Positions 12,769 through 33,045 of a stretch of 64,000 nt of DNA are shown piece by piece. Position 1 is the stretch's first letter; every line of letters starts with the position of its first letter. Source of the DNA: Minisyncoccota bacterium (GTDB lineage: Bacteria; Patescibacteriota; Minisyncoccia; Phycocordibacterales; CAJBRS01); the NCBI GenBank assembly GCA_035652395.1, contig DASRDX010000012.1, positions 96,778 through 160,777 on the forward strand, read 5' to 3'. The notes under the pieces are model-generated. The model made no database searches and had not been told where the DNA came from. It was given only the letters and a program-made list of their open reading frames with translations. A program made the position numbers and the translations under genes.

Positions 12769-15462
12769 ATGCTACGACGTTTATTTAAGTCCCTCATTGA
12801 TGAGGTTGATTACTTGGCCAATACTTTTGGCTGGATTCTGCGCCACCTTCAAAGCTGGCGCGGCGCTAAATTGGTGTTTCGCACCCTGCTTGCCTATTTT
12901 GTCACCTCCATGATTCTTTTCTGGCGTGGAGTAATCTGGTATTTCAGAGCTTTGCGCAATCCTCGGCGTCGCGGTCGTCTAATCAGAGAAACTATTGCCA
13001 TTCTTATTGTCCTTTTTTTATTTTTTGTCGGCACCACCTTGCTTTGGGCAGCCAGTTTGCAAATTCCCGATCTTAATTCTTTTGACCATCGCCTGATCAG
13101 CCAATCAACTAAAATTTACGACCGCACTGGAAATGTCTTGCTTTATGATTTGGGTGGCGAGGTGCGCCGAACCGTCGTGCCCTTTGATCAAATTTCCCCG
13201 AACATTAAAAATGCCTCGCTGGCTATTGAAGACGCGGGGTTCTACCAGCATGGCGCCATAAAAACCTCCTCAATTATTCGAGCTTTGCTTTATGATCTTA
13301 CTCATTTCACCACCACTCAAGGCGGATCTACCATTACTCAGCAGGTAATTAAAAATTCTCTTCTAAATAACAGTAAAAGTCCTACCAGAAAACTCAAGGA
13401 GTGGATTTTAGCAATTAAGCTGGAGGAGCAGGCCGACAAGGATACTATTCTTAATCTTTATTTAAATATCATTCCCTATGGAGGCAATATTTACGGAGTG
13501 GAAGAAGCTAGTGAGGCCTATTTCGGTGTTCATGCCATTGATTTAACTTTGGCCCAATCGGCTTATTTGGCCGCCATGGTTCAGGCTCCAAGTTATTACT
13601 CTCCTTATGGCGCCCATCGTGACGCGCTCGAGAATCGCAAAAATTTAGTTCTCAGTAAGATGAAAGAAAATGGATTTATTACCGAGGATCAATACAATCA
13701 AGCCCTGGCGGAAAAAATTGCTTTTGTTTCTCAACCTATTAACAGCATAAAAGCTCCGCACTTCTCGATGTATATTGTTCAGTATCTTGAAGATAAGTAT
13801 GGTGAGGATGTGGTTCAGAACGACGGATTGAAAGTTACTACTACACTTGATTACACCGTCCAGCAAAAAGCTGAAGATATTGTCAAAACTTATGTCGACA
13901 CTAATGGGAAAAAGTTTAAAGCTAGTAACGCAGCGTTAGTGGCGGCTGATCCAAAAACCGGTCAGATTTTAGCCATGGTCGGCTCGCGAGATTATTTCAG
14001 CAAAGAAATTGACGGCAATTTTAATGTGGCTACTGCCCATCGCCAGCCGGGATCTTCTTTTAAACCTTTCGTCTACGCCACCGCTTTTAATAAAGGTTAC
14101 ACTCCCGACACTATTCTTTTCGATGTGGATACAGAGTTCAATGCCAACTGTACGCCGGACCACATTCCAACTAATTCTGGAACTACCTGTTATGATCCGC
14201 AAAATTATGAAGGCGGATATCAAGGACCGATGACAATTAGAGCCGCTCTCGGTCAGTCGAGAAACATTCCGGGAGTGAAAGCTTTATATCTGGCGGGAAT
14301 TCAGGCTTCTCTCGATACCGCCCACGCTATGGGTATTCAGAGCCTCAACGCCGGTCCAGCCATTTACGGACTGACCTTAGTACTTGGAGGCGGCGAAGTT
14401 TCTCCCCTGGACATGGCCGAAGCTTATGGAGTTTTCGCCAACAACGGAGCGAAAAATCCGGCCACTGGAATTCTAAGTGTGGTGGATCGTGACGGAAAGG
14501 TTTTGGAACAATACGCCACCGACACGCCGGAGCAGGTTATTCCGGAGCAAACCGCTGAAGAAATGAATGATATTTTATCGGATAATAATGCTCGCGCTCC
14601 GATTTTTGGTTCGCATTATTTTGGCAGCCAGCGCGTGGCCATGAAAACTGGTACGACAAATAATTCGCGTGACGCTTGGATTATCGGCTACACTCCTGAT
14701 ATTTCGGTTAGCGCTTGGATGGGAAACAATGACAACACACCGATGGCCCAACAAGCGGCTGCCACAATTGTGGCACCAATGTGGAAAAAGTTTATGGATG
14801 CTGTTTTGCCTCAATATTCGGCAGATGAATTTAAACCACCAGCCCCTATTGATGAATCAAATATGAAGCCGGTGTTGCGTGGAGTTTGGCAGGGTAATGT
14901 TGCTTACACGCTTGATAAAAGTACGGGATTACTGGCCACGCCAGATACTCCACCAGAGATGCGGCAGGACGTTTATGATAATAATGTTCATGAAATTCTT
15001 TATTACGTGAATAAGAATGATCCGCAAGGTCCGCCGCCTACGAATCCGGCGGCGGACCCCCAATTCGCCAACTGGGAGGCTGGCGTTTCCCGTTGGGCTG
15101 CCACCGCCGGTTACACTAGCAGCACAACCCCTTCTTCAACCGCCCCCACCGGCTTTGATAATGTTCACACTCAGGCGGCCGCTCCCAAAATTTCCATCAC
15201 CAATCCGGGAAATGGGTCTACTTATCCAAAAGATCAAAGGATTACTATTTCTATCAGCAGCCAAGGCTCCTTCCCCCTTTCTAAAGTTGATTACTACATT
15301 AACGGCAGCTATATTGGCACGGCCGATAAAAGTCCGTTCTTTTTCTCCTTTGTGCCGGCAGATGTTCAAAATATTGCCGCCCACAACGAATTGAGAGCGG
15401 TGGCCTACGACAATGTTTTAAATAAAGGAGAGGCTGTAAGTAATTTCGATGTCAGTCCCTAG
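12769..15462 (+). CDS. class A penicillin-binding protein (GT51 glycosyltransferase plus transpeptidase) with a C-terminal extension
   Basis: 897 aa. GT51 motifs EDAGFYQHGAI and GGSTITQQVIKN, transpeptidase SSFKP and KTGTTN, N-terminal membrane anchor. Confidence 0.85.
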   Translation: MLRRLFKSLIDEVDYLANTFGWILRHLQSWRGAKLVFRTLLAYFVTSMILFWRGVIWYFRALRNPRRRGRLIRETIAILIVLFLFFVGTTLLWAASLQIPDLNSFDHRLISQSTKIYDRTGNVLLYDLGGEVRRTVVPFDQISPNIKNASLAIEDAGFYQHGAIKTSSIIRALLYDLTHFTTTQGGSTITQQVIKNSLLNNSKSPTRKLKEWILAIKLEEQADKDTILNLYLNIIPYGGNIYGVEEASEAYFGVHAIDLTLAQSAYLAAMVQAPSYYSPYGAHRDALENRKNLVLSKMKENGFITEDQYNQALAEKIAFVSQPINSIKAPHFSMYIVQYLEDKYGEDVVQNDGLKVTTTLDYTVQQKAEDIVKTYVDTNGKKFKASNAALVAADPKTGQILAMVGSRDYFSKEIDGNFNVATAHRQPGSSFKPFVYATAFNKGYTPDTILFDVDTEFNANCTPDHIPTNSGTTCYDPQNYEGGYQGPMTIRAALGQSRNIPGVKALYLAGIQASLDTAHAMGIQSLNAGPAIYGLTLVLGGGEVSPLDMAEAYGVFANNGAKNPATGILSVVDRDGKVLEQYATDTPEQVIPEQTAEEMNDILSDNNARAPIFGSHYFGSQRVAMKTGTTNNSRDAWIIGYTPDISVSAWMGNNDNTPMAQQAAATIVAPMWKKFMDAVLPQYSADEFKPPAPIDESNMKPVLRGVWQGNVAYTLDKSTGLLATPDTPPEMRQDVYDNNVHEILYYVNKNDPQGPPPTNPAADPQFANWEAGVSRWAATAGYTSSTTPSSTAPTGFDNVHTQAAAPKISITNPGNGSTYPKDQRITISISSQGSFPLSKVDYYINGSYIGTADKSPFFFSFVPADVQNIAAHNELRAVAYDNVLNKGEAVSNFDVSP

Positions 15463-15748: not shown

Positions 15749-16852
15749 TTACTTATTCATCGGACTAACTAAATAGAGAAATGATCGATCGTTTACTCCC
15801 CGAATTAATAGGGGTTTATTTGGCCCGCTGAAAGTTAGCTGAACACTGTCGGCGTCAATAGACTGAAAGCAGTCATTAATGTATTTATAATTAAAACTAA
15901 TCTCTAAATCTTCTCCCTTAAGAGCGGCTTCCAGTTTGTCCTGACTTTCCCCCACCTCACCATTTCGACTACTTAATTCAAAAAGTTTGTTTTTGGGGGA
16001 CAAAGACAGACTAATCTGATTAAAGTTGTTGGAAAATATATTGGCAATCTTTAAAGCGTTAATTAAATCCTGTTTTAGAATTACCGCTTCGGAGGTCGAT
16101 TCTTTTGGAATAATTTGTTTGTAGTCTGGGAAAATTCCATCCACCACTCGGGAAAATAATCTTATACCGGGAAGTTCGAAAGAAAGTTGATTTTTATTGA
16201 GCGATAATTCCACCTGGGCTTCACCTGTTTGCTCCAAGACGCGCACAATTTCCGGAATGTTTTTAAAAGGAATCAAAATTTGCGAAAAATCTTTTTTGTT
16301 TTTTATTTTTAGTCGCTTTTCGGCCAACCTAAATGAGTCTGTGGCCACAAACACCACCTCATCATGATCTGGGTAAATAAAAACACTAGAAAGCTCTGGC
16401 TTCATGCTGGAAACAGAGGCACTATACCAAACGGATTTAAATCCGCGGATTAAATCCTTGGTGTTAAAAGTGATTTTTTGTCCGTTTTCTACTTTTGGAA
16501 TGGAGGGAAAATCTTGGTGTGGAACAGCTTTAATTAGGGTCTGGTGTCGCCTGGTAGAAACTTTTAAATTTCCTTCTTTTGTTTCAAAGCGAATATTTTT
16601 GTCCTCTAAAGAACTGTTTATGAAATTATTTAGGACGCTCCCAGGCACAGCCACTTCCCCTTTTTCCTCGGTCTTTACCGGCACCTCCAGCTCAATTCCG
16701 ATGTCTAAATTAGTGGCTTTAATTATTAGGTTGTTGGTTTCCGCCACGAAAAGAACACATTTCAAAACCGGCAAAGTGGCGCTTTTCGCAGTAATTTTTT
16801 CAGCTAAAGATATAGCTGTGCTTAATTTTTCTTTCAATCCTTCTAATTTCAT
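15749..16852 (-). CDS. dnaN: DNA polymerase III beta sliding clamp
   Basis: 367 aa with the three-domain clamp pattern; lies downstream of dnaA. Confidence 0.9.
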   Translation of the reverse strand: MKLEGLKEKLSTAISLAEKITAKSATLPVLKCVLFVAETNNLIIKATNLDIGIELEVPVKTEEKGEVAVPGSVLNNFINSSLEDKNIRFETKEGNLKVSTRRHQTLIKAVPHQDFPSIPKVENGQKITFNTKDLIRGFKSVWYSASVSSMKPELSSVFIYPDHDEVVFVATDSFRLAEKRLKIKNKKDFSQILIPFKNIPEIVRVLEQTGEAQVELSLNKNQLSFELPGIRLFSRVVDGIFPDYKQIIPKESTSEAVILKQDLINALKIANIFSNNFNQISLSLSPKNKLFELSSRNGEVGESQDKLEAALKGEDLEISFNYKYINDCFQSIDADSVQLTFSGPNKPLLIRGVNDRSFLYLVSPMNK

Positions 16853-17087
16853 ATTGTTAACAAGTATTAATATTTCTCTTTATAAAATTTATTATTGCTA
16901 TTATGGGTGTGGATTTGTGTATAACTTTTTTAAACCATAATTTAGAACACCTTTTTCAATTCCTTTAATTTTTTATTGGGGATAATTGAATTATACAATC
17001 TTCCAATATTTAACCTTTTATAAGTTTATGTTGTTTTCCCTAAAATTCTCCCCACCAGCACAACTACTTTCCCCATCCTTTACCTCC
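16853..17087. promoter_or_regulatory. AT-rich dnaA-dnaN intergenic region; candidate oriC segment with DnaA-box-like 9-mers
   Basis: TGTGTATAA (1 mismatch from TGTGGATAA), TGTGGATTT and TTATACAAT. The region is strongly AT-rich. Confidence 0.4.
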
Positions 17088-18419
17088 CTATATCAACGCC
17101 CTAATCTGATTTAGCTCCTGGGCCAGTAAATTATCCACCTTCAACTCATTTTTTATTTTCTCACAGGAATGAATAACAGTGGTGTGGTCGCGGCCACCCA
17201 ATTTTTGACCAATGGTCGGATAAGAGACGTTAAAATCTTCCCGCAAAATATACATTGATAACTGTCTTGGCCGAACCACTTCTTTCCGCCGAGTCTTGTC
17301 GTAAATACTATCCTCCTCCACATTATAAAAGCCAGCCACAATCTTAATAACGTCTTTCACCGAAACATTTTTAGTCGGTTTGGCACTGTTTTTAATGAGA
17401 GTTTTGATTTCCAGAAGATTTAATTCCCGCCCACGGACCTCGGACTGATGAATGAGGCTGTTTAAAATTCCTTCAAGCTCACGAATGTTTCCTTGAATGG
17501 AAGTGGCTAAATACTGCGAAACCTCCTGCGAAAGACTGAAATTGTGAGCCCGACTTTTAGTTTCCAGGATAGCTACTCGCGACTCGTGATCGGGCGGAGG
17601 AATATCAACAATCATACCGGCCACAAACCGAGACTTTAAACGCTCTTCCAGGTTCGGAATAAAATTAGGATGAATATCGGAGGAGAAAATAATCTGTTTG
17701 TTGTTGTCATGAAGGTGGTTAAATAAATGAAATAACTCTTCCTGACACTTGTCTTTGTTGGAAATAAACTGGATATCGTCCATGATCAGGACATCGTATT
17801 TTCGGTATTTGTCCTTAAAATTGTTCATTTTATTGGTCTGGATGTGGTTGACGACGTCTTGAGCGAATTTTTCAGAAGTAATGTAGTAAATTTTTTTGTT
17901 ACTCTGAATTTTCAAGTGATTGCCAATAGCCTGCATCAAATGAGTTTTACCGAGGCCGGTATTTCCATAAATGAAAAGCGGATTGTAAGCGATAGGTTTT
18001 TTAATAATGGCCTGGGCGGCAGCGTACGCCAATTCATTAAACGGACCGACTACAAAAGAATCAAAAGTGTAACGCGGGTTAAGATTATCTTCTTTGTTGA
18101 TATAAAGATCTGAAAAAGGCAGCTCTTTAGTCGGTTGCGGCGCAAAAGAAGCTTCCTGTTTAGGAGCGGTGGTTGAAGTAATGGTGTATTCGAGCGAGCG
18201 GATATTTTCTTGGAGCGAGCGGAGAATCCTTAAAATATTTTTATGGAATTTATTGACTAACCAGTCTTTAACAAAAGCGCTAGGGACGGCTAAAGTTACC
18301 ACCCCGTCTTCTTGTTTAAGAATATAGGTGGGTTTAAACCAGATGTTAAAGTTTCCTTTTGATACCGAAAGCTCAATTTCAGCCAGCACCTTGTCCCAAA
18401 GTTTCTTGTTATCTAACAT
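17088..18419 (-). CDS. dnaA: chromosomal replication initiator DnaA
   Basis: 443 aa. AAA+ Walker A GNTGLGKTHL and a C-terminal DNA-binding domain. Confidence 0.95.
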   Translation of the reverse strand: MLDNKKLWDKVLAEIELSVSKGNFNIWFKPTYILKQEDGVVTLAVPSAFVKDWLVNKFHKNILRILRSLQENIRSLEYTITSTTAPKQEASFAPQPTKELPFSDLYINKEDNLNPRYTFDSFVVGPFNELAYAAAQAIIKKPIAYNPLFIYGNTGLGKTHLMQAIGNHLKIQSNKKIYYITSEKFAQDVVNHIQTNKMNNFKDKYRKYDVLIMDDIQFISNKDKCQEELFHLFNHLHDNNKQIIFSSDIHPNFIPNLEERLKSRFVAGMIVDIPPPDHESRVAILETKSRAHNFSLSQEVSQYLATSIQGNIRELEGILNSLIHQSEVRGRELNLLEIKTLIKNSAKPTKNVSVKDVIKIVAGFYNVEEDSIYDKTRRKEVVRPRQLSMYILREDFNVSYPTIGQKLGGRDHTTVIHSCEKIKNELKVDNLLAQELNQIRALI

Positions 18420-18732
18420 AGTTTAAACACCAGATAAAGATTTAATAAATTTTTCTCATTATAGCCCTCTCTCCAAAATAGCAATCTTGTGAACAGTTTA
18501 TAAGTGTGTTGATAAATTGTGGATAGTGGAGCCGACAGAGTTTTTGGCAGACTGTCAAACCAGCCACTTTTTGAATTTTAATTGTATAGCAAGAAACACT
18601 AATAAATTTTTGTATTCGAAATATTCAGAGAATACAAGAAGTTTTAACTTTACGGTAAAGAGTCAGCAAGCTCCGACATTCGAACAAAGAGATTTTTTTG
18701 GCACAGAGCTAATTTTGAGCTATACTACTTCC
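18420..18732. promoter_or_regulatory. dnaA upstream region / rpmH promoter region; second candidate oriC segment
   Basis: TTGTGGATAG (complement cTATCCACA, 1 mismatch from the DnaA-box consensus), AT-rich tracts, and a TATACT -10 element ahead of rpmH. Confidence 0.4.
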
Positions 18733-18867
18733 ATGTCACGAACTTATCAACCGAAAAAGCGAAAAAGAGCTAAAACTCATGGTTTTTTGGTCAGGAATCG
18801 AACGAAAGGCGGGCGCAAAACCGTTAAAAGACGACGCCAGAAAGGCAGACGACGACTAACTGTTTAA
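18733..18867 (+). CDS. rpmH: 50S ribosomal protein L34
   Basis: 44 aa: [18 protein letters not shown]...GRRRLTV. The six-frame ORF 18517..18867 is trimmed to the internal Met. Confidence 0.9.
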
Positions 18868-18922
18868 ATAACCCATCTCCTAAATCTCCTAGATTTTTAG
18901 AGGACTCTACCTCTAATCTATT

Positions 18923-19246
18923 ATGACTAAAATACAGCGCACCAGCCGCGAACTCTTCAAGAGAGTGATGAAAAAAGGGCGAGGACGAAACTCAAAACAC
19001 CTATCTTTAAAATTTTTACCCCTTCAGGCTGATGAAAAAAGTTTTGTCGCCGTAGTTTCCAAAAAAAATTATAAAAGAGCGGTGGATCGTAATAAATTGA
19101 AGCGCCGGGCGCGGGCCATTTTCCGGAAATTAGAGGAAAATGCCGCGCCCGGCTCCTACATTCTTTTTTTAAAATCCAAATCCCTCCTCCTCACTTATCA
19201 AGAGCTTGAAAAAGAAGTGGCCGATTTAATCGGAATTAATAAATAA
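18923..19246 (+). CDS. rnpA: ribonuclease P protein component
   Basis: 107 aa basic protein in the canonical rpmH-rnpA-yidC arrangement. Confidence 0.85.
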   Translation: MTKIQRTSRELFKRVMKKGRGRNSKHLSLKFLPLQADEKSFVAVVSKKNYKRAVDRNKLKRRARAIFRKLEENAAPGSYILFLKSKSLLLTYQELEKEVADLIGINK

Positions 19247-19280
19247 GATAGGCTCGTGGCATTCATGTTACTATAATTAA

Positions 19281-20009
19281 ATGATCCAATACTTTTTCAA
19301 ACCGCTCTTCTATATTCCCCTCTACAATGCTCTAGTTTTTCTTCTCTCTATCTTACCGGCTGCCAGTGTGGGTCTCGCCGTCATTCTTTTAACCTGTATT
19401 GTCAAATTAATTCTCTTTCCCTTAACTCGCCAATCGGTTGTTACTACCGCTAAATTAAAAAAACTTGAACCGGAACTGGCCGTTCTTCGAAAACAATACG
19501 AAAAAGACAAACAGGAACAAGCTCGGCAAGTAATGGCATTTTATAAGAAGAACCAAATCAATCCTTTTTCCGGAGTTTGGCTTTTGCTGATTCAAACGCC
19601 TATTATTTTAAGCCTCTATTACATTTTCTTAAAAGGAGGGTTGCCAATCATTGATGTATCTCTCCTTTACCCATTTATTCACCCGCCGCAGGTGGTGGAC
19701 ATGACATTTTTGGGTCTTAACATCGCGCACCCCCAATTTATTTTTGGCCTCCTGGCCGGCGTTACACAATTTATTCAGATTCAATTGTCTGTACCGCCGG
19801 TGAAAAAGCTGGCTGACGGCACAACCCCAACTTTCAAAGACGATTTGGCCCGCAGTATGAATATGCAGTTTCGTTACGTGCTGCCTGTCGTCATTTTTAT
19901 TATTTCCCTAAAAGTTTCCGGAGCAGTCGCTCTTTACTGGGCGACCAGCAACCTATTCATTATCGGGCAGGAATTAGTAGTTCGACGGCAGCTTAAAAAA
20001 ACCTCTTAA
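19281..20009 (+). CDS. yidC: membrane protein insertase YidC (short form)
   Basis: 242 aa, multi-transmembrane, at the position of the 60 kDa inner-membrane protein family gene in the origin operon. Confidence 0.8.
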   Translation: MIQYFFKPLFYIPLYNALVFLLSILPAASVGLAVILLTCIVKLILFPLTRQSVVTTAKLKKLEPELAVLRKQYEKDKQEQARQVMAFYKKNQINPFSGVWLLLIQTPIILSLYYIFLKGGLPIIDVSLLYPFIHPPQVVDMTFLGLNIAHPQFIFGLLAGVTQFIQIQLSVPPVKKLADGTTPTFKDDLARSMNMQFRYVLPVVIFIISLKVSGAVALYWATSNLFIIGQELVVRRQLKKTS

Positions 20010-21406
20010 TGAGCCGGCGGAGTGTAAGGAGTGCTGGTTGGAGCTACAACAGGGCCTGTAGTAGCTGGCGTGCTGCTAGAAACAATTGGACCGGGAGGCT
20101 GCGTAATTAAAAGATTCCACAAGGTCAGATCTCGTTTGTTGGTAAACATTAAATAATTTTCGTTTGGATCAAGCGAAAGATTGACGGCGTCGATTGCTTG
20201 TTTGGTTAGATCGGCCGTTCTGGCAACGACAGTACGTTCTCCAGTCTGAACATTGATTTTCCAGAAATTATCGTTGAAGAAAACACTTCCCTGATACCAA
20301 ACGTCCGGATAGTTTCCTTTCTTCACTAAAATTGGCACGGCACAATAAACCACCGTAGTTGCTTTCTGACTCCAAACACATTTTTCGGGCAGAGTTTTCA
20401 AGGAAAGACTGGAAGCGCTACCGCTTTTAGTGTTGAAAAGATTTAAATCAAAATCCACCGTATTACTTTCGTTAAAAAGAATATAACTAAGATCCGGTGA
20501 GGTTAAAGTAGTTAAGCCCGGCACATTTCCCAGAACTTTAGTTAGGGAACCTGTCGTACTATTCATAAAGAAAACATAGCCGGGAATATAAGCTGAAGGT
20601 CTGGTGGTCAGAGTTAAAGTGTTAGTCTTTGGCCAACTAACTTGCCACTCTTTTAAGGGGAAATTAAAAATCTGTTTTGGCTTGGCATTATTTGGCGAAG
20701 CGACGGAACCTATTCCTCCCTGCCCCCCGGCTCGGAGATAAAAAATCTGGTCTCTCCCCGGCGAGAGAGCCAACTCCGTAATATTTTCCGGCAGGGCATA
20801 AGTGAATAAAGATTTTGGCCCACTATTTCCTCCGACCGTTGTAGTGGTGGCGGTGGAGGTGGAAACTAGAACATAAGAAGTCTCAATTGTATTTTCGTCA
20901 GAGCCTAAGTACCGAAGTAGCGCTGAATTACCCTGATTAGTAATAAGAGCTTGGTAGATTTTAGGCAGCGTGGTGTTAGTTATTTCAGCCACATCCAAAG
21001 AATCAGGTTTGGTTTCAAAGAAGTGGCTAGTAGCCCGATCAACATACCGAATAAAAGTCTGAACCAGAGAAACATTTTTAACTTGTCCTTGATTATCTAC
21101 CGTGGTTGAAGCCACCACTCGTTGAATAAAACCCGCGCCCGCTACCGGCGCTTTAGTAACCTGGCGCAAACGCGGAATGGTGACCATCGCACCGCTATCA
21201 GATTGAATGGTAGCCGTCGGGCTGGAACTAGCCGTTCCTTCCGGGCCGCCGTTAAATAAAGAAAAAATTGTACCAAAAATTCCTCCAGAACTTTGACCTT
21301 GCGACGACGACTTTCCTTTCATAATAGCCAAAGCAAATAAGACGCCGATAATTATCACCACAATTATCAAAACAACTATAACAATTTTAACTATTCTTGA
21401 AGTCAT
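20006..21406 (-). CDS. membrane-anchored Thr/Ser-rich extracellular protein (first gene of the T4SS-like locus)
   Basis: 466 aa. N-terminal transmembrane helix IVKIVIVVLIIVVIIIGVLFALAI; its stop overlaps the upstream gene. Confidence 0.4.
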   Translation of the reverse strand: MTSRIVKIVIVVLIIVVIIIGVLFALAIMKGKSSSQGQSSGGIFGTIFSLFNGGPEGTASSSPTATIQSDSGAMVTIPRLRQVTKAPVAGAGFIQRVVASTTVDNQGQVKNVSLVQTFIRYVDRATSHFFETKPDSLDVAEITNTTLPKIYQALITNQGNSALLRYLGSDENTIETSYVLVSTSTATTTTVGGNSGPKSLFTYALPENITELALSPGRDQIFYLRAGGQGGIGSVASPNNAKPKQIFNFPLKEWQVSWPKTNTLTLTTRPSAYIPGYVFFMNSTTGSLTKVLGNVPGLTTLTSPDLSYILFNESNTVDFDLNLFNTKSGSASSLSLKTLPEKCVWSQKATTVVYCAVPILVKKGNYPDVWYQGSVFFNDNFWKINVQTGERTVVARTADLTKQAIDAVNLSLDPNENYLMFTNKRDLTLWNLLITQPPGPIVSSSTPATTGPVVAPTSTPYTPPAH

Positions 21407-22389
21407 TAATGTTTAGAATTATAGAAAGTAAAGCTGAGATTACTTCCGTCATAAACAGCATTCTTTCCCGGCACCGCCAATCCCAGTGTTTGAGCGGCGT
21501 GAAGTGAGATCTCGCCGTATCCAGTCGCGCCAGCGTCTCCTACAACGGCCCAGGCGGTTTTACCAGTCTTGCTATCAGTTATTAAAACAGGAGTTCCCAT
21601 GGGAATACCTGAACCAGTGGGCACTGCTACATAGTTGTCAGTTGTGGCATCCAGGCAAGAATTATTCGGGACATAACTAGTACAACTTTTATGTGTGGTC
21701 GGATCCAAACCCGGATCAGTTCGTCCGTCGGTATCAATAGCCACATTATCAGAGTTAATAGTGTACCCTTCTATGTAGTTGTCGTTTGAATCCAGTAAAT
21801 AATTGGAGCCATCGGGGTTAATCACCGCAGTAGAGCCGTCATTGTAATCAATGTAATGGATTCCGTTACTATCATATTCATCAGCGATACCATTGCCTCC
21901 ACCAGTTGTACCAACGGTCCCGCCCGGACCATATTGACCAGCCGGCACCAGAGTTCCTCCTCCAGTCTGAGCGGCCCCGCCAACAGAAACAGGAGTAATT
22001 TGAAGATTGGTTTTAAGAAGGGCCGGATTAATAGTGTTAAGAATAACGTAGGCTCCCAAAGCCAGAATCAATCCCCAAATCGCCGAAGTCATTCGGTTGA
22101 TTCCTTCGGATTTATTAGAAACAGCATCACTTGACATATATTGGATTCCTCCAATGACTATCATGATTACAGCTAAGCCGCTGGCTAGAGCTACCCCGAA
22201 CTTAAACATAGTATTTAGATATCCGCTCAAACCTCCGGCTGCACTGTTTGTGTCAGTGTAACCATCGATTGGGGCCAAGGGCACATATCCTTGGGCTAAC
22301 CCGACAAGCGGGATCGCAAAAAACCCCAACATACTAATTAGAAAAAAGATTTTAAAAAGATTATGAAATTTTGATTTAGAAAGAAGCAT
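21406..22389 (-). CDS. VirB2/TrbC-like pilin domain fused to a C-terminal RlpA-like DPBB (lytic) domain
   Basis: Signal peptide followed by two hydrophobic helices (GVALASGLAVIMIVIGGIQY, AIWGLILALGAYVIL), then a Gly-rich linker and PMGTPVLITDSKTGKTAWAVVGDAG...GEISLHAAQTLGL, which matches the RlpA/3D core. The start is trimmed to the internal Met. Confidence 0.5.
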   Translation of the reverse strand: MLLSKSKFHNLFKIFFLISMLGFFAIPLVGLAQGYVPLAPIDGYTDTNSAAGGLSGYLNTMFKFGVALASGLAVIMIVIGGIQYMSSDAVSNKSEGINRMTSAIWGLILALGAYVILNTINPALLKTNLQITPVSVGGAAQTGGGTLVPAGQYGPGGTVGTTGGGNGIADEYDSNGIHYIDYNDGSTAVINPDGSNYLLDSNDNYIEGYTINSDNVAIDTDGRTDPGLDPTTHKSCTSYVPNNSCLDATTDNYVAVPTGSGIPMGTPVLITDSKTGKTAWAVVGDAGATGYGEISLHAAQTLGLAVPGKNAVYDGSNLSFTFYNSKH

Positions 22390-23440
22390 TTTGGCTACTA
22401 TTGTTTGAGAAGTTAACAATGATATTGGTGGAAGCGGACTGTAAAATACTTGACGGCACAGTGGCCGATACAGAAATCGCGGATTGTCCATTTTGATTAT
22501 CTGGCTTTCGGAAAACTACTTCACTTTGATGAGGATCAAGAGCCATGGCTGAATTATTTAGATACCAAGCATAATTAATAGTCTTATCAGTAGGAGAAGT
22601 GGCACTAAAATAAAATGGAAAAGCGCCAAATGTAACTTCCGAGGCGGTTAAATCGAACTGGCTGTCTAAAATTTTATTAAAAAGAATGCCGTTTAGCGGA
22701 CTGTCTTCATATAAAAGTACTTGAGGATTTTGAGACGCTACACTTATAGCTCCCGAACCACTAATGTTATTTTTTACCAAAGACGCCTCAACACTTACAT
22801 TAATTGGTTGATTCAAAATATCGCCGGTAACAGTCAGGGTTCGTTTACCGTATCCAGATTTGTCTCCAAGTACGGAATTGTTTAGGCGCCATTTATACAC
22901 CAAAGTGTTAGGGTCCACCGTCACCCCATTCGAAACAAAATTAGGGAGAGCAACGAAGGTTAAAGTGCCTTGAGGTGGATAGAGACGTTTCCCTTCATAA
23001 AATGGGGGCACATACGAATTTGCTTCCCAAACAATATCAACGCTGGCCGGACTAATATTTACCGTCTTCGTAATTCTAGTGCCGTTAACCGGTAAAATAA
23101 TAACCTGTACAGCCGAGAGACTGCCTGCCGCGCCAGTTGTAAATTCAAAGGAGGTAGCACCCACGCCGTTTTTTTGAACGACTCCATTTACTAACCAGGA
23201 AATGTCAGCTCTATTTAGATCCGTGCCAAAGGCTTCAAGAGAAAGATTAACTAGTTGACTTGGTGCAGGATTTTCAGGATTAACCTTAATATTTATCTGC
23301 TCCTCAAGCCCAGGAATTAGACTAGGTAAAGAAGGACTATTATAGTCCGTATTCTGGGCGTAGCCAATTGAGAAAAAAGAAAAAAGAAGAATCAGTAGAA
23401 GAGAAAAAGTCAGCCGAGAGTATAAATGACTAAACTTCAT
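22376..23440 (-). CDS. secreted hypothetical protein
   Basis: 354 aa with signal peptide MKFSHLYSRLTFSLLLILLFSFFSIGYAQ. Confidence 0.4.
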   Translation of the reverse strand: MKFSHLYSRLTFSLLLILLFSFFSIGYAQNTDYNSPSLPSLIPGLEEQINIKVNPENPAPSQLVNLSLEAFGTDLNRADISWLVNGVVQKNGVGATSFEFTTGAAGSLSAVQVIILPVNGTRITKTVNISPASVDIVWEANSYVPPFYEGKRLYPPQGTLTFVALPNFVSNGVTVDPNTLVYKWRLNNSVLGDKSGYGKRTLTVTGDILNQPINVSVEASLVKNNISGSGAISVASQNPQVLLYEDSPLNGILFNKILDSQFDLTASEVTFGAFPFYFSATSPTDKTINYAWYLNNSAMALDPHQSEVVFRKPDNQNGQSAISVSATVPSSILQSASTNIIVNFSNNSSQNASF

Positions 23441-23476
23441 TCTCTCAATTATATAATTTTAGACCCTTTTTTACTA

Positions 23477-23917
23477 CTAAGCGGTATCTCCGAGGGTATC
23501 TGATGAGGCATTTTCAATCGAAATCTTATTGATTTGCTTCTGATTATAAACATCATCTTCTTCTCGGGTAATTTCAGTTACTTGTCGAACAAAAGCCCTA
23601 ACACTTGGTTCAATCAACCCTTTTTTGGTGCGGCTAAAGGCGAAGACGTTCACAATGGGAATGAGAGATAGAACAAATTTGCCGGCTGCTGCCCCAGCTA
23701 TTTTCCCTTTGAAAACTGAAACACCTTTAGTGGCAAACCAGAAAGCAAACATACAATAAACTAAAGCCATAAAAATAAAGCTCACTATCTCTCCTATTCC
23801 AAACCAGTCACCGAGAATATTTACTAGAAAATTAATCCCATAGGCAGCCCAAGCCACTGCCCCCATCAACATTTCTGAAGCGGCAGATATTCTGTTGCGT
23901 GTATAAATAACTGCCAT
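23477..23917 (-). CDS. small polytopic membrane protein
   Basis: 146 aa with three predicted transmembrane helices; lies immediately downstream of virB4. Confidence 0.4.
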   Translation of the reverse strand: MAVIYTRNRISAASEMLMGAVAWAAYGINFLVNILGDWFGIGEIVSFIFMALVYCMFAFWFATKGVSVFKGKIAGAAAGKFVLSLIPIVNVFAFSRTKKGLIEPSVRAFVRQVTEITREEDDVYNQKQINKISIENASSDTLGDTA

Positions 23918-23919
23918 GA

Positions 23920-25743
23920 TTAGGTCTGCGTAGATTCTTCAGCAACTTGAGCCTTGGCCTGTTTGATGGCCAGAAGCTGGTGCGGATCGGAAGTGATGAT
24001 CTGATCTTCGGTGTAAGAAGCGATGACTTTAATGGCGACGTGTTTGAGGCCGGCGAAGAAAATTCCTTCCCCAACATCTGATTCCAAAAGCAGGTATTTT
24101 TCTTCCTCGGTTAAGTTGAAAGTTTTCTGCACCACATCAATGGAAGAAGCCGATTGTTTCATTAACATTTGAATTGACGAGTTCGTGATAATTGGCATGC
24201 CGTATTGCGACTTCATGAAATCTTCCACGTCTTGAGTAATGGTGGCGAGCCCCAAGAAATATTTTCGGCCTCGTTTAGCCAGACCGAGTAAGAACGAAGC
24301 GGTGTCTTCCGATTTCATCATCCACCAAGCCTCGTCAATTACCAACAAACGCTTTTTCAGTTCCTTGCGAATAGAATTCCAAATGAAGTGAGTGACGATA
24401 TACATTGCAACCGGTTTTAATTCATCTTCCATGTCGCGAAGTGAAAAGACCACGAACTTCTTATTAATATCCACGTTTGTCGGGCGGTTAATAAATCCGG
24501 CCCAAGTTCCTTTAGTGTATTTTGAAAGTCTTTGAACCAGCGATTCTCCCCCCTCCATGCCCGCCAGCACCAGTTCGAAGTCTGAAAGAAGGGGTGGCTC
24601 AATATTGGCGAAATTGCTCTCGGAAGTGATATCTTTAAGAGCGTAAGTTTCAGTGATGGCCCGATCAATAATGGAATCTTCTTCCGGAGTTAATCCTCCA
24701 AGCATTAACCGGAATAGACCGACTAAATTCACAATGTTGGAGCGCAAAATATCTGCTTGTGATTCGTCTTCGCGAGCGATTGGCAAATCAAATGGATTGA
24801 TGTGGTTGTCGGAAGTCAAAGAAATATTGAAGTATCGGCCACCAGTCGCTTCGGCTAGGAATTCATATTCTCTTTCCGGGTCAATGACAATGACATCGGT
24901 ATCGAACATCAACGAACGCAGAATTTCCAGTTTAGTGAAATAAGATTTTCCGGAACCGGCCTTGGCAAAAGTAACGGAGTTGTAATTTTCCAAAGAAAAG
25001 CGATCAAAGAGAATCAAGCCAGAATTATGACGGTTAATTCCGTAAAGAATTCCTTTATCGGAAGTTAAATCAAAAGAAATAAAAGGAAATAGGCTGGAGA
25101 GCGGCGAGGAATTTAATTTTGATCGAACTTCCAGAAGGTCGGTAGCAATTGGCAGAATGCTTTTATATCCCTGCTCCTGCTGGAAAAGAGCCGGTTTGAC
25201 GTAAACTAGACTGGCTTCCAGAATCGATTTCACTTCGGATTCCAATTTATCCAACTCACCTTCATTGGCTCCGTAAATGGAAATGTAAAGACCGACATCA
25301 AAGATTCTTTCTTGGGCTTGTTGAAGATTGTCGCGAAGTTGTTCCAAATCCTGATAAGCAGTGTCAAGAACTGGATCGCGTACCAGTCCTTTTTCTTCCC
25401 GAATGGAAATCTGACTTTCTACTTCGGCCACCTTTTTCTGAAACTGGCGGAGAATAGTGGCAGTATCAATCGGATGAACAAAAATGGAAATATCGAAGAC
25501 CTTGTCCAAGTTGATGATGGGAGAAAACCATGATTCGCCAAGAAATCTAGGGTAGGAAATGACAAAGAAAGTGCGCACCATTTTATCACCCAGATTCATT
25601 TCCCGCGGCGTAATTTTTAGGGCAGACGGAGCGATAATATCTTTCAGCTCCAAAACCCCTGATTGATAAATCTCCTGCGGCAGGATGGAAGTAATCTTAG
25701 GTGTCTCCTTCTGTTCGGGTTTTAAAAAGTCCAATAAAGCCAT
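23920..25743 (-). CDS. virB4: T4SS ATPase VirB4/TrbE family (Gram-positive PrgJ/TcpF-like)
   Basis: 607 aa. Walker A FAKAGSGKSYFTK, Walker B-like VIDEAWWMM, NPFD motif. Confidence 0.8.
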   Translation of the reverse strand: MALLDFLKPEQKETPKITSILPQEIYQSGVLELKDIIAPSALKITPREMNLGDKMVRTFFVISYPRFLGESWFSPIINLDKVFDISIFVHPIDTATILRQFQKKVAEVESQISIREEKGLVRDPVLDTAYQDLEQLRDNLQQAQERIFDVGLYISIYGANEGELDKLESEVKSILEASLVYVKPALFQQEQGYKSILPIATDLLEVRSKLNSSPLSSLFPFISFDLTSDKGILYGINRHNSGLILFDRFSLENYNSVTFAKAGSGKSYFTKLEILRSLMFDTDVIVIDPEREYEFLAEATGGRYFNISLTSDNHINPFDLPIAREDESQADILRSNIVNLVGLFRLMLGGLTPEEDSIIDRAITETYALKDITSESNFANIEPPLLSDFELVLAGMEGGESLVQRLSKYTKGTWAGFINRPTNVDINKKFVVFSLRDMEDELKPVAMYIVTHFIWNSIRKELKKRLLVIDEAWWMMKSEDTASFLLGLAKRGRKYFLGLATITQDVEDFMKSQYGMPIITNSSIQMLMKQSASSIDVVQKTFNLTEEEKYLLLESDVGEGIFFAGLKHVAIKVIASYTEDQIITSDPHQLLAIKQAKAQVAEESTQT

Positions 25744-25763
25744 GGTTTTTTGGGAATTATACC

Positions 25764-26402
25764 TTAAGTGAGAGGAATAGGTTTTTCCGTATCTCCCGGA
25801 TTAAAAATTTTATAAAAGAGCTCGATTAACTCCTCTGTTCCGAGCTGAACCACTCGAATACCGCAACGCACCAACCCCTGTTCCACAACGTCAATTCGCT
25901 GTTCCAGCTGGGTTCGATGCTCCTCAAAACTTTGGATGTTATCAGCCGCCACTTCCTTTGGGTTTTTTCTTTTCAAGAATCCCCCACCAATAGTTTTTTT
26001 GGCTTGAAGCATGGCCGGAGTATATGGAATAACAATAAAAAAACTTTTAGTCATGATATTGGTGTTTTCAGTAAAATTTTTGATGAACTCAATGTATTCA
26101 TGAGTCTGGATTTTCATCAGATCGATTTTTTGTTCTTTTTCCCGCTGCTCGAGAAGGGCGATGTAAGGACGAATGTCGAGTTTGCGCGACTGAACGAAAA
26201 TCTGAATGGAAAAATTCAGGGAGTTTAGAAAATTTTGAAATTGGAAAATAATGGAATTCTGCTCATCCGCTGATTTCAGGGCAAAGTTTAAAGAAGAAGT
26301 CATAATTAAGGAGCGCAATGATCCGTCTTTCAATACAATAACGCCGTCTCGAATTTCTTTGATCGGTACAAATTCCTGTGTTGCTTTTGAAGGAGTAGCC
26401 AT
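25764..26402 (-). CDS. T4SS-associated hypothetical protein
   Basis: 212 aa in a different frame from virB4, separated by 20 nt. No catalytic motif seen; it weakly resembles VirB4 N-terminal regions. Confidence 0.35.
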   Translation of the reverse strand: MATPSKATQEFVPIKEIRDGVIVLKDGSLRSLIMTSSLNFALKSADEQNSIIFQFQNFLNSLNFSIQIFVQSRKLDIRPYIALLEQREKEQKIDLMKIQTHEYIEFIKNFTENTNIMTKSFFIVIPYTPAMLQAKKTIGGGFLKRKNPKEVAADNIQSFEEHRTQLEQRIDVVEQGLVRCGIRVVQLGTEELIELFYKIFNPGDTEKPIPLT

Positions 26403-26404
26403 TT

Positions 26405-26854
26405 TTAAATTCTTAAGCCTAAATCTTCATCGCGCTTCTTGCGAGTTTCCTGTGAATAAAGAGTGTCATTGATGTCCAGACTCCAAGTTAAATCTTTCAA
26501 TTTGCTTTCGGAAAGCTTTGGCACATAAATGGAGGAAACAGCGGCACTTTCTTCTTTTTTCTCTTCCGGTTTTCTCTCTTCCTTTTTCCAGATGTAGAGC
26601 TTGTGACTGATGGCGTAATTAAAAGCCGATTCCATAAGGAGAATAAACGGACGATTATTGACCTTGTAAAAAGCCAAAGCGATTCCCAGGCCGAGCGATC
26701 CTAAAATGGGTAGGACGGCTACGTAAAGAGGAAGGTAACGGAAAAAAATGTAAGAAAGTCCCGCTCCACCGGCCAAATAAAGGAACTGTTTGAAAGTTAG
26801 CGGTCCAAAGATCTTATCCTCTACTTCAATGAATTGTGGAACTTGATAGCGCAT
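26405..26854 (-). CDS. PrgI/VirB3-like small membrane protein
   Basis: 149 aa. MRYQVPQFIEVEDKIFGPLTFKQFLYL followed by two transmembrane helices, as in Gram-positive conjugation PrgI-family proteins. Confidence 0.5.
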   Translation of the reverse strand: MRYQVPQFIEVEDKIFGPLTFKQFLYLAGGAGLSYIFFRYLPLYVAVLPILGSLGLGIALAFYKVNNRPFILLMESAFNYAISHKLYIWKKEERKPEEKKEESAAVSSIYVPKLSESKLKDLTWSLDINDTLYSQETRKKRDEDLGLRI

Positions 26855-27231
26855 TATCGCTTACCTCCCTTGACCAGCTTGCCGATTTCCTTACTCACAA
26901 GGGCGGTTTGTGATGCTATTTTATCAAATGAATCGGGCTTTAGATAGCCGAGATCGCGCGCTACAAGAAGATAATTTTGAATTTCCCGCACCGCCTTTAG
27001 GGAAAAGGTGTAAAACTGCACCTTTTCCCTAAAGGCGGTGCGTCCAAAACCCTCCGCAATATTGGTAGTAATGGCCAGAGCCGAACGTTTTAACTGGCTA
27101 CTTAAACCACTCTGATCCTCTTGAGGAAAGTTTCGGACCACTTTGAAAATAAGGAGGATTAATTGATGACCTTCCTGCCAGGCGCTAAGATCGGTGAAGG
27201 ATTTTATTTTTTCAATCCTTATTTCCATCAA
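26854..27231 (-). CDS. four-helix-bundle protein (TIGR02436 family, the type found in 23S rRNA intervening sequences)
   Basis: 125 aa. FKVVRNFPQEDQSGLSSQLKRSALAITTNIAEGFGR matches the family pattern. Confidence 0.65.
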   Translation of the reverse strand: MMEIRIEKIKSFTDLSAWQEGHQLILLIFKVVRNFPQEDQSGLSSQLKRSALAITTNIAEGFGRTAFREKVQFYTFSLKAVREIQNYLLVARDLGYLKPDSFDKIASQTALVSKEIGKLVKGGKR

Positions 27232-28040
27232 TTAACAGGTTCTCGATACGGATCGATTTTAGAAGGAGTGGGCGGTGTGGGAGTTGGTGGTGGCGTTTCT
27301 TTTACTTCGATTTCTTGTCGCGGGGCTCGCACGGTTTCAGTCAATTTGTCCGGAAGGATAGTAGCAGCCGGAACTTCAGAAGTTGGTGTACTTATTGGTT
27401 GCGCCTTCGGCGCAACCTCAACTCTCTCTTCCGTTCGGCTCTTCATCTCTTCCTCCATGGCTGCCCTTCTAAAATCATCCATTCTTTTAGCATCGGTGGT
27501 CACGCTCATATCACGATCTCTCAACCTTTCGCCAATATTTGCCAGTCCACTAGAACTTCTTTTCGGCATTACATTTTGGTGGTCCGGTACAGTAATTGGT
27601 CTAGAATGTGCCGCAACTCTCACTGGCTCCTCAATTTCTCTCAAAAGATTGTCTTTATTTAGATTTTGTTCGCTCTCTGTATTAGATTGACGAGCCTCTT
27701 GTGCGTCCTCCTCTTTAATTTTTTCTGCCATTGTCTGAAGAGAGGATTTTATAGAAGAAAAAATACTATTATTTACATCATCAACAATTAGCGAGGCTTT
27801 ATCTCGGGGGATTCTAAGTTCCCGTACTAAATTATTAAGATACTCATCAGCGCTTTCAAGACCCACCAAAATCATCAAGGTTTCATTCTCTAATATGTCG
27901 GCCTGGTCAATGTGGAGCTGATGTTTCTTACTAATTTCCGCCAGCTTTGCTCCAATATCATTATTCAAAATAGCCTCCTTAATATTACTCGGAAGGTTTT
28001 GGAGTTGTGGCTCTATGATTTTAAAAATTTCTTCGTTCAT
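27228..28040 (-). CDS. hypothetical protein with a Pro/Thr-rich C-terminus
   Basis: 270 aa with no recognisable motifs. Confidence 0.3.
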   Translation of the reverse strand: MNEEIFKIIEPQLQNLPSNIKEAILNNDIGAKLAEISKKHQLHIDQADILENETLMILVGLESADEYLNNLVRELRIPRDKASLIVDDVNNSIFSSIKSSLQTMAEKIKEEDAQEARQSNTESEQNLNKDNLLREIEEPVRVAAHSRPITVPDHQNVMPKRSSSGLANIGERLRDRDMSVTTDAKRMDDFRRAAMEEEMKSRTEERVEVAPKAQPISTPTSEVPAATILPDKLTETVRAPRQEIEVKETPPPTPTPPTPSKIDPYREPVN

Positions 28041-28049
28041 GAATCTATA

Positions 28050-31971: not shown

Positions 31972-33045
31972 TTAGATGTTATTCCACATCAATCCAGGCT
32001 CATCTTTATTGAAGATTATAGCATTTTCCCGCAGATATTGGGCAATTTTAAGGTAGAAAGTGGGTAAAATATTGCGGTTGTTCTGATAAAGTTTAGCGTC
32101 CAGCACTCCTTTTACGGGGTCGGTCTGATAATTATTCAAATCTGAAAGAGCTACATACATTTGATTGTAACCGTTGACGATCGAAAGATGGATTTCTCCT
32201 ATTTCATTCGGTACGGCAATTTTAGAAAGATCATTTGCCAACTTTTTATAATAACTGGCGGATTGATCGTAGGTTGGATTGGAAATGAGTAAATAATCGT
32301 CCGAATCTTTCTGGTAAACTGAAGCAAGGGCGTTAGCGTAAGTTTTAATTTGATCTTTAGATGGAGAGTTTATGATATTCAAACTATCCAAAGTATATTT
32401 TTGAGCGGCTGGCGTAGAAGAGGGAACGCCGGAGAGAATATTTTGAATTAAAGTGCTTTTGTCCGGTTCTGAAACTTTACCGTTTTGATCTTGAGCTGTT
32501 AGATAAGAAGTAAAGAAATTTTTGGAGAGACTTTGAGTGAGATTGTTACTGGCAGAATTGTCGGTAGAAACGGCGATCTGTACGGCAGTGGTGATACGCG
32601 AATCTCCCGCTGAAAGGTAATCAGTGTAAGGCGGCGAGGCTCCGTTCGAACTTAGTTTGCTTGGGTCTCTTCCTTCATTTACTTCTACCCCGTCCAATGT
32701 GCCGTCACCGTCCGTGTCTGGATTTTTTGGATTGGTGTGCCAGATATTTATTTCCGCGTAATCACTCAAGCTGTCGCTGTCGGAATCTTTCTGGTTTTGA
32801 AGATTGTTTGCGGCTGAATATGAGAGATTTTTCTCGCCCAAAACCGAACTGGCGATATGATTTTTAGAAATAAAGACAACTAAAATTACCACTAGAGCAA
32901 GAATGCCGAGATAAAGGATTTTTTTACTTGGTTTTTTACTGTTTGGAGTCAAGAAAGTAAGCCTTTTAGCTATTATAGCATGGGGAAGCAAGCGGCCGGC
33001 CGTATCTTCGGCCGGCCGCTTGCTTCCCCAATCATTGTGCGCCAT
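31972..33045 (-). CDS. membrane-anchored protein with thrombospondin type-3-like Ca-binding repeats
   Basis: DSDSDS stretch and NPKNPDTDGDGTLDGVEVNEGRDP. The first roughly 30 codons overlap a 22-bp hairpin, so the true start may be the TTG near 32947. Confidence 0.4.
   Translation of the reverse strand: MAHNDWGSKRPAEDTAGRLLPHAIIAKRLTFLTPNSKKPSKKILYLGILALVVILVVFISKNHIASSVLGEKNLSYSAANNLQNQKDSDSDSLSDYAEINIWHTNPKNPDTDGDGTLDGVEVNEGRDPSKLSSNGASPPYTDYLSAGDSRITTAVQIAVSTDNSASNNLTQSLSKNFFTSYLTAQDQNGKVSEPDKSTLIQNILSGVPSSTPAAQKYTLDSLNIINSPSKDQIKTYANALASVYQKDSDDYLLISNPTYDQSASYYKKLANDLSKIAVPNEIGEIHLSIVNGYNQMYVALSDLNNYQTDPVKGVLDAKLYQNNRNILPTFYLKIAQYLRENAIIFNKDEPGLMWNNI
32981..33030. promoter_or_regulatory. 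22-bp perfect GC-rich hairpin (TGGGGAAGCAAGCGGCCGGCCG...)
   Basis: Perfect inverted repeat with loop TATCTT, at the divergent junction between the T4SS operon and the hydrolase genes. Confidence 0.55.

Follow-up and report, generated by a model that had tools for sequence, protein, structure and literature searches.

A VirB2-like pilin fused to a GH75-like double-psi beta-barrel in a type IV secretion cluster of a Minisyncoccota bacterium: a candidate pilin-tethered cell-wall glycan hydrolase

How can a type IV secretion system (T4SS) open the cell wall when no separate wall-cutting protein accompanies it? The question is raised by one gene in a stretch of 64,000 nucleotides (nt) from a Minisyncoccota bacterium (assembly GCA_035652395.1, contig DASRDX010000012.1, positions 96,778 to 160,777), called the window below. 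This gene, located on the minus strand at 21406..22389, stop codon included, encodes a protein of 327 amino acids (aa), in which a VirB2-like pilin module is followed by a flexible linker and a double-psi beta-barrel (DPBB) domain resembling GH75 enzymes. A preliminary description of the locus had seen here a pilin carrying its own cell-wall-cutting DPBB of the RlpA/3D kind. In this work we present evidence that the fusion of a pilin with a DPBB of a glycan-cleaving type, which that description had noticed, is real, conserved and located inside a T4SS cluster. In our favoured reading, to which we give roughly even chances, the protein would be a pilin-tethered extracytoplasmic cell-wall glycan hydrolase playing the VirB1 role for its T4SS, that is, a built-in VirB1.

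The extent of the gene was settled from the list of open reading frames, a check of the translation and an identical public protein. The maximal frame at the locus (21406-22491, minus strand) gives 361 aa, and an internal ATG at 22389 gives the 327-aa form, which is the real gene and whose residue numbers are used throughout. A verbatim copy of it, P0001, is encoded on a 209-kb metagenome contig in public data, and the aligned N-termini of the orthologs agree with its start. The start at 22491 was rejected, as it implies an overlap of 116 nt with the upstream gene and both the orthologs and the database gene call begin at M35 of the longer frame; with the 327-aa start the overlap is 14 nt. The coordinates of the preliminary description fit the shorter gene, while its residue ranges 30-160 and 250-361 belong to the 361-aa frame; the motifs it quoted (PMGTPV, AWAVVGDAG and ISLHAAQTLG) are all found in the translated protein. 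At the other end the stop codon has one base in common with the ATG of the downstream gene (TAATG), and the fusion gene is therefore a member of a tightly coupled operon.

The evidence for an enzyme comes from the C-terminal domain (residues 205-327, 123 aa; 21409..21777, minus strand). Its structure, predicted with 16 orthologs, reached a pLDDT of 89.5 and a pTM of 0.85 and has the DPBB fold, and its top Foldseek match was the GH75 chitosanase V-Csn (E 2.8e-6, TM 0.66); the baseplate hub of cyanophage A-1(L) (8kea) was also among the structural matches. V-Csn came first again when the family profile was compared with PDB sequences (E 7e-7, with its D148 and E157 aligned), and hhalign connected the domain with P0128, a protein annotated with PF07335 (97.5%, E 5.8e-12). 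GH75 enzymes have the DPBB fold and six universally conserved positions, which in V-Csn are D34, D36, D148, E157 and two glycines; D34 and D36 lie within the active-site cleft, and the mutants D148N and E157Q are without activity (PMC9485262). All these acids and their flanking glycines are kept in the fusion protein, in two motifs defined by ortholog conservation and alignment. The first, IDTDG (D219, D221, G222; 21724..21738, minus strand), is equivalent to D34/D36 and was aligned by HMMER with FAIDADG of V-Csn, a short segment that is not significant alone. The second, GDAGATGYGEIS (G284, D285, G292, E293, S295; 21505..21540, minus strand), is equivalent to D148/E157, and its residues GDAGATGYGE were aligned with GDVGPSSKIGEGS, the corresponding motif of V-Csn. 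No variation was seen at D221, G222, G284 and E293 in 35 fused orthologs, and D219, D285 and G292 are near-invariant.

Judged by profile and predicted fold, the domain is a minimal GH75. It shares with the GH75 chitosanases (V-Csn, PDB 7TVL-7TVP; the fungal Csn; PF07335) the barrel and the D-x-D and GD...GE acids with their glycines, and it differs from them in being shorter (123 against 227 aa) and in falling under the Pfam cutoff. The Domain-2 insert of V-Csn (residues 37-108, 72 aa), one wall of the substrate cleft (PMC9485262), is reduced here to about 30 aa between DTDG (222) and YVAVP (253-257). Pfam PF07335 gave no match on the window protein at E up to 1, and matched weakly 4 of the 16 family members (best E 0.0026).

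As regards the RlpA/3D assignment, the fold of the preliminary description stands and the family does not: DPBB_1 (PF03330) and 3D (PF06725) of Pfam had no match in any of the 16 family members even when E values as high as 10 were allowed, and the nearest family is GH75. The domain shares the DPBB superfold with the RlpA/3D/MltA lytic transglycosylases, and the equivalent strand carries an acidic residue in both. Pfam found in the fusion protein no SLT, CHAP/NlpC-P60 or LytM catalytic domain, and a PHROGs scan of the C-terminal domain and of a stand-alone homologue gave no match. The actual candidate for a 3D/MltA-type DPBB in the window is another protein, also of 327 aa, encoded on the plus strand at 33061-34044, with a PG_binding_1 match (E 1e-7) and a weak 3D-domain match (E 0.0015); hhalign of our C-terminal domain against it returned a probability of 0.1%.

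A DPBB need not be an enzyme, and the domain might bind or loosen the wall in the manner of expansins, loosenins or kiwellins, or inhibit a protease. We regard this as scarcely probable, because the four GH75 acids are invariant or near-invariant in the 35 orthologs, which is not expected of binding-only DPBBs, and because the best match by every method, V-Csn, is an enzyme.

The N-terminal part starts with a predicted signal peptide (residues 1-32, MLLSKSK...PLVGLA; 22294..22389, minus strand), for which hydrophobicity, AlphaFold2 (AF2) and the N-termini of orthologs speak; its hydrophobic windows begin at residues 8-18, and cleavage would occur after A32. The T4SS_pilin (VirB2-like) module follows at residues 35-129 (22003..22287, minus strand), delimited by Pfam, a family hidden Markov model (HMM), AF2 and hydropathy. 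It consists of a conserved YxPLAP motif, a helix (50-86), a polar loop (87-89 in the model), a second helix (90-120) and an LNTINP motif, with a stretch containing K and R residues, NKSEGINR, coming after the short inter-helix loop. Hydropathy accordingly shows three hydrophobic segments, the signal peptide and then the two helices, and the full-length AF2 model, built with 35 orthologs, places helices at 5-24, followed by a stretch of low confidence, and at 50-86 and 90-120 as a hairpin. Our own family HMM recognises the module with E 1.5e-38, and in 81-147 proteins the motifs GG.QYM, K..GK and LNTINP hardly vary. Pfam PF18895 is matched at E < 1e-3 by 69 of 81 relatives, TrbC by 7 of them; a precomputed database annotation assigns PF18895.6 to the identical protein P0001, with the match marked weak. 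We call the module VirB2-like because the field treats this Pfam family as such (PMC12102498), and because of its architecture and genomic context. The preliminary description was right about the signal peptide and two-helix architecture; profile similarity to TrbC/VirB2 did not reach significance. On the same segment (22003-22287) there is also a weak match, under cutoff at E 3e-4, to NCBIfam NF045849, the 'Mbov_0395 family pilin-like conjugal transfer protein' of a Mycoplasma integrative and conjugative element, which hints that pilin-like hairpins may occur in monoderm MPF-FATA systems as well.

The two modules are joined by a Gly/Thr-rich disordered linker (residues 131-167; 21889..21999, minus strand; pLDDT < 50 throughout), in which 14 of 37 residues are Gly and whose length differs between orthologs. 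Between linker and enzyme stands a beta-hairpin spacer, DEYDSNGIHYIDYNDGSTAVINPDGSNYLLDSNDN (residues 168-204; 21778..21888, minus strand), defined from AF2 and the ortholog alignment, with strands at 170-172, 178-181, 187-190 and 196-199 and a pLDDT of about 80; it was found only in the closest orthologs, P0002 and P0003. Weak matches of the spacer to DUF6619 and to propeller blades of the designed 'Cake' proteins in the PDB, like a weak Pfam match to RebB, were judged to be due to chance or low complexity.

Two modules separated by a low-complexity linker might also result from a sequencing or assembly frameshift joining two genes, and we give this explanation practically no weight. The first search yielded 18 homologues with the pilin-linker-GH75-like architecture, and about 45 sequence clusters in total show it, drawn from independent NCBI, ENA, JGI and Logan assemblies, with linkers unlike in length and sequence; the recurrence of the same fusion with differing linkers in independent assemblies excludes the artefact. 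At the three loci examined a single gene occupies the slot. The named homologues are assigned to Paceibacterota, Parcubacteria or Patescibacteria.

The surroundings of the fusion are conserved too. At loci L001 and L003, where the orthologs are 59% and 37% identical, the gene order of the window recurs: PrgI/VirB3, TraC-like and VirB4, two proteins of ~140 and ~350 aa, the pilin-GH75 fusion, a protein of ~450 aa, and then yidC, dnaA and dnaN; at these ortholog loci rnpA and (rpmH) come between yidC and dnaA. In another genome, at the locus of P0094, the same slot holds a pilin fused to NlpC/P60, and on a 6-kb contig with partial synteny a pilin gene followed by a pilin-SLT gene stands between genes for proteins of 334 and 541 aa.

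Such replacement of the C-terminal part is widespread among the relatives of this pilin. An extension of at least 100 aa after the pilin domain is present in 100 of the 120 closest pilin homologues (median 173), and clustering separated about 35 distinct C-terminal modules on related pilins. Pfam recognised, in 81 relatives lacking the GH75-like domain, SLT (6), NlpC/P60 (5), VanY (4), YkuD (2), M15_4 (2), Amidase_5 (1) and SLT_3 (1). The pilin domain of the window protein has a median identity of 46% to GH75-like pilins and medians of 45-52% to pilins with other modules; identity is alike whatever module follows, which indicates an exchange of modules on a conserved scaffold. The cell-wall-cutting character claimed for the domain in the preliminary description thereby gains independent support from the NlpC/P60, SLT, VanY and other modules on sister pilins, even though the enzyme family then named was wrong. 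In the second-largest module (alignment A5; 21 proteins, including P0028, P0032, P0048 and P0050) the residues E, H, H, D, H and H are invariant and four Cys are present (GGTE.W.H..H...VD ... HWHV). No Pfam match and no PDB sequence match was obtained for this module, which has the look of a metal-dependent hydrolase not described so far.

The GH75-like mini-domain is also found outside pilins. When 1.84 billion representative proteins were searched exhaustively with an HMM, 735 clusters scored an E of 1e-3 or better and 168 an E of 1e-10 or better, and pilin fusions made up about 40 of the top 150. The remainder include the Rhs/YD-repeat proteins P0207, P0242 and P0173, in which the mini-domain takes the C-terminal toxin position, the Phage_base_V baseplate protein P0150, proteins combining it with CHAP (P0164, P0190) or PG_binding_1 (P0142, P0151, P0162), P0176, and many stand-alone proteins of ~160 aa without signal peptides. 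These associations with CHAP, PG_binding_1, Rhs and baseplate proteins lead us to infer a bacterial cell-wall substrate rather than chitosan, and they suggest what may be an unannotated, cell-wall-directed branch of GH75.

The same data bear on the possibility that the domain is a genuine chitosanase, or another exopolysaccharide hydrolase used for nutrition or matrix degradation and having nothing to do with peptidoglycan. GH75 chitosanases are indeed the nearest matches both among solved structures and among Pfam families, and the catalytic residues are kept. Nevertheless we find this highly unlikely: one would hardly expect a nutritional enzyme to be tethered to a pilin in a T4SS operon, peptidoglycan peptidases or transglycosylases are the modules of sister proteins in this slot, the domain itself keeps company with PG_binding_1, CHAP, Rhs and phage baseplate modules, and Domain-2, which forms the substrate cleft, is truncated. 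Unlike the free, secreted GH75 chitosanases, the protein is bound to a pilin, and its substrate is probably not chitosan.

The cluster around the gene is that of a T4SS. The fusion is encoded two genes downstream of a VirB4-like ATPase (23920..25743, minus strand), identified by P-loop_TraG (E 9e-26), AAA_10 and DUF87 and found in the same place in the ortholog loci. Further upstream are a small TraC-like protein between VirB3 and VirB4 (25764..26402, minus strand; a weak TraC_F_IV match, and orthologs with the TraC-like PF26593) and a PrgI/VirB3-like protein (26405..26854, minus strand; Pfam PrgI, E 1.2e-9; syntenic in L001 and L003). The pilin gene itself is flanked directly upstream by a conserved secreted protein of 354 aa (22376..23440, minus strand), whose stop overlaps the pilin start by the 14 nt mentioned above, and directly downstream by a conserved protein of 466 aa with an N-terminal membrane anchor (20006..21406, minus strand), joined through the TAATG overlap; both were taken from the list of open reading frames. 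Every locus examined has counterparts of both, of 329-356 and 436-541 aa, respectively. Neither has a Pfam match, and both are probably uncharacterised T4SS components. A polytopic protein of 652 aa (28050-30008, minus strand) is VirB6-like, its transmembrane region being weakly similar to VirB6/TrwI (PDB 7o3v_F, E 0.27); residues 508-595 match Phage_lysozyme weakly (E 0.007), and the protein may on this ground be a VirB6-lysozyme fusion and a second wall enzyme of the system. A VirB1 of the SLT, CHAP or NlpC type was not detectable in the window cluster or in the ortholog loci L001 and L003.

The T4SS cluster adjoins dnaN, dnaA and yidC (15749-20009 and 20006-31903 in the window), and rnpA and rpmH are found beside yidC/dnaA at the ortholog loci. 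It is thus located next to the chromosomal origin region, as PMC12102498 describes for some Patescibacteria. A class A penicillin-binding protein encoded at 12769-15462 indicates that the organism makes peptidoglycan, and Paceibacterota, Parcubacteria and Patescibacteria are regarded as monoderm (PMC12857230).

Taken together, these features allow a mechanism to be proposed. After export by Sec and removal of the signal peptide, the VirB2-like hairpin would sit in the membrane with both ends outside, and the basic residues of NKSEGINR, just past the inter-helix turn, would lie near the cytoplasmic end of the hairpin. With the ends outside and the basic turn inside, the linker and the enzyme would be extracytoplasmic; this topology, predicted from AF2 and hydropathy, agrees with the wall-cutting role given to the domain in the preliminary description. 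The flexible Gly/Thr linker would keep the compact GH75-like glycosidase in the cell-wall space; should the pilin polymerise, the enzyme would come to lie on the outer face of the filament. Extensions added to the C-terminus of F-pilin are exposed on the outside of the pilus. The acid cluster D219, D221, D285 and E293 would, to judge by the conserved residues, cut a beta-1,4-linked amino-sugar glycan, most likely the peptidoglycan backbone and perhaps its de-N-acetylated stretches; module swapping and the domain associations are what point to a cell-wall substrate. Local opening of the wall, performed elsewhere by VirB1, PrgK or TraG, would here be part of the pilin subunit.

Several results weigh against a built-in VirB1. 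On the pilin side, PF18895 matched the window protein with E 8.1e-6 and 26.3 bits, that is 0.3 bits short of the curated cutoff of 26.6, and Pfam TrbC (PF04956) was not significant (E 0.44; 11.2 bits, cutoff 27.9). Comparison by hhalign with Agrobacterium tumefaciens VirB2, a query sequence that agreed at 99% identity with annotated plasmids, gave a non-significant probability of 7%, and comparison with an alignment of seven VirB2/TrbC sequences gave 1.8%, although the alignment was collinear over both helices. Neither the pilin profile nor the fold search found a solved pilin in the PDB, and Foldseek with the full-length model returned DPBB matches alone. No second, short pilin gene was detected in the window with narrow and broad family HMMs, and an appendage of ~20 kDa on each subunit may be incompatible with pilus packing. 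On the enzyme side, the substrate of characterised GH75 enzymes is chitosan, not peptidoglycan (PMC9485262); the reduction of Domain-2 to ~30 aa and the failure of the Pfam GH75 model mean that chitosanase specificity cannot be transferred; and both catalytic activity and substrate are predicted. Finally, the real VirB1 analogue could be the 652-aa VirB6-like neighbour.

Part of this evidence would suit a simpler explanation, in which the hairpin is a membrane anchor and nothing else, and the protein a general tethered autolysin or wall-remodelling enzyme outside any filament, connected with the T4SS by neighbourhood. No homology to true VirB2/TrbC could be demonstrated, the window has a single pilin-like gene and this gene bears a bulky domain, and the T4SS hydrolases PrgK and TraG of Gram-positive bacteria are themselves held in the membrane by N-terminal transmembrane segments (cited in PMC12102498). 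We still think it unlikely, for the conservation of the hairpin (GG.QYM, K..GK, LNTINP) goes far above the need of a simple anchor, and the strict synteny and translational coupling within the T4SS operon favour a role specific to the T4SS.

A built-in VirB1 would act on the cell's own wall, and the same enzyme could instead be directed at a host. On this account enzymes on the outside or the tip of the filament would digest the wall of the host so as to allow docking, uptake or the delivery of effectors; we regard this as possible rather than probable. The mini-domain is present in Rhs toxins (P0207, P0242, P0173) and in the baseplate protein P0150, that is, in systems that attack cells from outside; at least about 35 modules are swapped on a conserved pilin scaffold, a pattern resembling polymorphic toxins and phage lysins tuned to different targets; the C-termini of VirB2-family pilins would, by the predicted topology, face outward; and the epibiotic growth of Saccharibacteria depends on an essential T4SS (PMC10633639). 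On the other hand, a pilus is described in PMC12857230 as not yet observed for Patescibacteria T4SSs, no immunity-like gene was identified, and swapping is not rampant, since for 36 of the 45 GH75-like fusions the nearest neighbour by pilin-domain identity is another GH75-like pilin. Roles at the own wall and at the host wall are, besides, compatible with each other. More tentatively, and as a somewhat improbable extension, we propose for Paceibacteria-type Patescibacteria a T4SS filament with a wall-degrading enzyme on each subunit, where the exchanged modules (GH75-like, SLT, NlpC/P60, VanY/M15, YkuD and several unknown folds) would be matched to the chemistry of the host wall, and the pilin would be both conduit and host-wall-breaching effector.

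The reading as a built-in VirB1 finds partial parallels in known systems. VirB1 of Gram-negative bacteria and the membrane-anchored PrgK, TraG (pIP501) and TcpG of Gram-positive bacteria are likewise encoded in T4SS operons, extracytoplasmic and presumed to open the wall locally; they are separate polypeptides with SLT, CHAP or LytM domains, unlike the GH75-like DPBB fused here behind a pilin. In MPF-T operons virB1 adjoins virB2, and the two are separate genes. Structural subunits of other machines are joined to an enzyme that cuts the wall in their path: FlgJ of beta- and gammaproteobacteria combines a rod-cap domain with a muramidase, and spike or hub proteins of phages and type VI secretion systems with fused lysins exist, for example V. 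cholerae VgrG3, with its chitosanase-like fold. The machines and the structural modules are different ones there, and the enzyme is joined to a cap, tip or hub, whereas here it is joined to a putatively polymerising pilin.

The T4SSs of Patescibacteria, their proximity to dnaA and their VirB2-like pilins have been described before (PMC12102498, PMC10633639 and PMC12857230), and in PMC10633639 a T4SS with VirB2-like pilins is reported as essential in Southlakia epibionticum. In some Patescibacteria the genes for T4SS pilins rank with the most strongly expressed ones (PMC10936435). The present gene resembles the known PF18895 pilins of the group in its family and in its chromosomal cluster (VirB4, PrgI/VirB3, VirB6-like) beside dnaA, with no evident relaxase or VirB1; it is unlike the short pilins and pilin arrays described in PMC12102498 and PMC10633639 in having a C-terminal extension of ~200 aa that ends in an enzyme, and in being the single pilin of the window. 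A pilin fused to a wall enzyme is not described for Patescibacteria in the searchable literature passages, a scope covering openly accessible papers and not those available by subscription only. What appears to be new is that one polypeptide unites the pilin and a putative wall hydrolase of a T4SS, the latter on a minimal GH75 fold.

VirB2-like pilins make these T4SSs unusual among monoderm systems, and the systems matter to an epibiotic life for which they are essential. According to Quinonero-Coronel et al. 2025 (PMC12102498), VirB1 is missing from most Patescibacteria that have VirB2-like pilins, from which that paper concludes that the putative pilus needs none. The fusion suggests another answer for at least one large clade, namely that a built-in enzyme may explain how the wall is opened for a secretion pilus without a separate wall-cutting protein. 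The pattern would be general and modular, as many C-terminal domains of close pilin relatives are recognisable peptidoglycan enzymes. Although the function we assign to the fusion protein is predicted throughout, it bears on an open question about the T4SS of the epibiotic lifestyle. A soluble domain of 123 residues with predicted catalytic residues gives a handle on the passage of a T4SS through the wall of an ultrasmall monoderm, and the fusion offers a way to ask whether the T4SSs of Patescibacteria attack the wall of the host. GH75, known for the degradation of chitosan, would also gain a minimal DPBB form that is used in T4SSs, Rhs toxins and phage baseplates.

Two further genes of the cluster have counterparts elsewhere. 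A four-helix-bundle protein of the 23S_rRNA_IVP family (26854-27231, minus strand; E 5e-27) is encoded between the PrgI/VirB3-like gene and the next T4SS gene, and a gene of this family takes the same place at the ortholog locus L001 (5200-5574). At the distal end of the cluster a protein of 357 aa with a bacterial, calcium-binding TSP3 (thrombospondin type 3) repeat is encoded (31972-33045, minus strand), and L001 has a TSP3_bac protein at the equivalent place.

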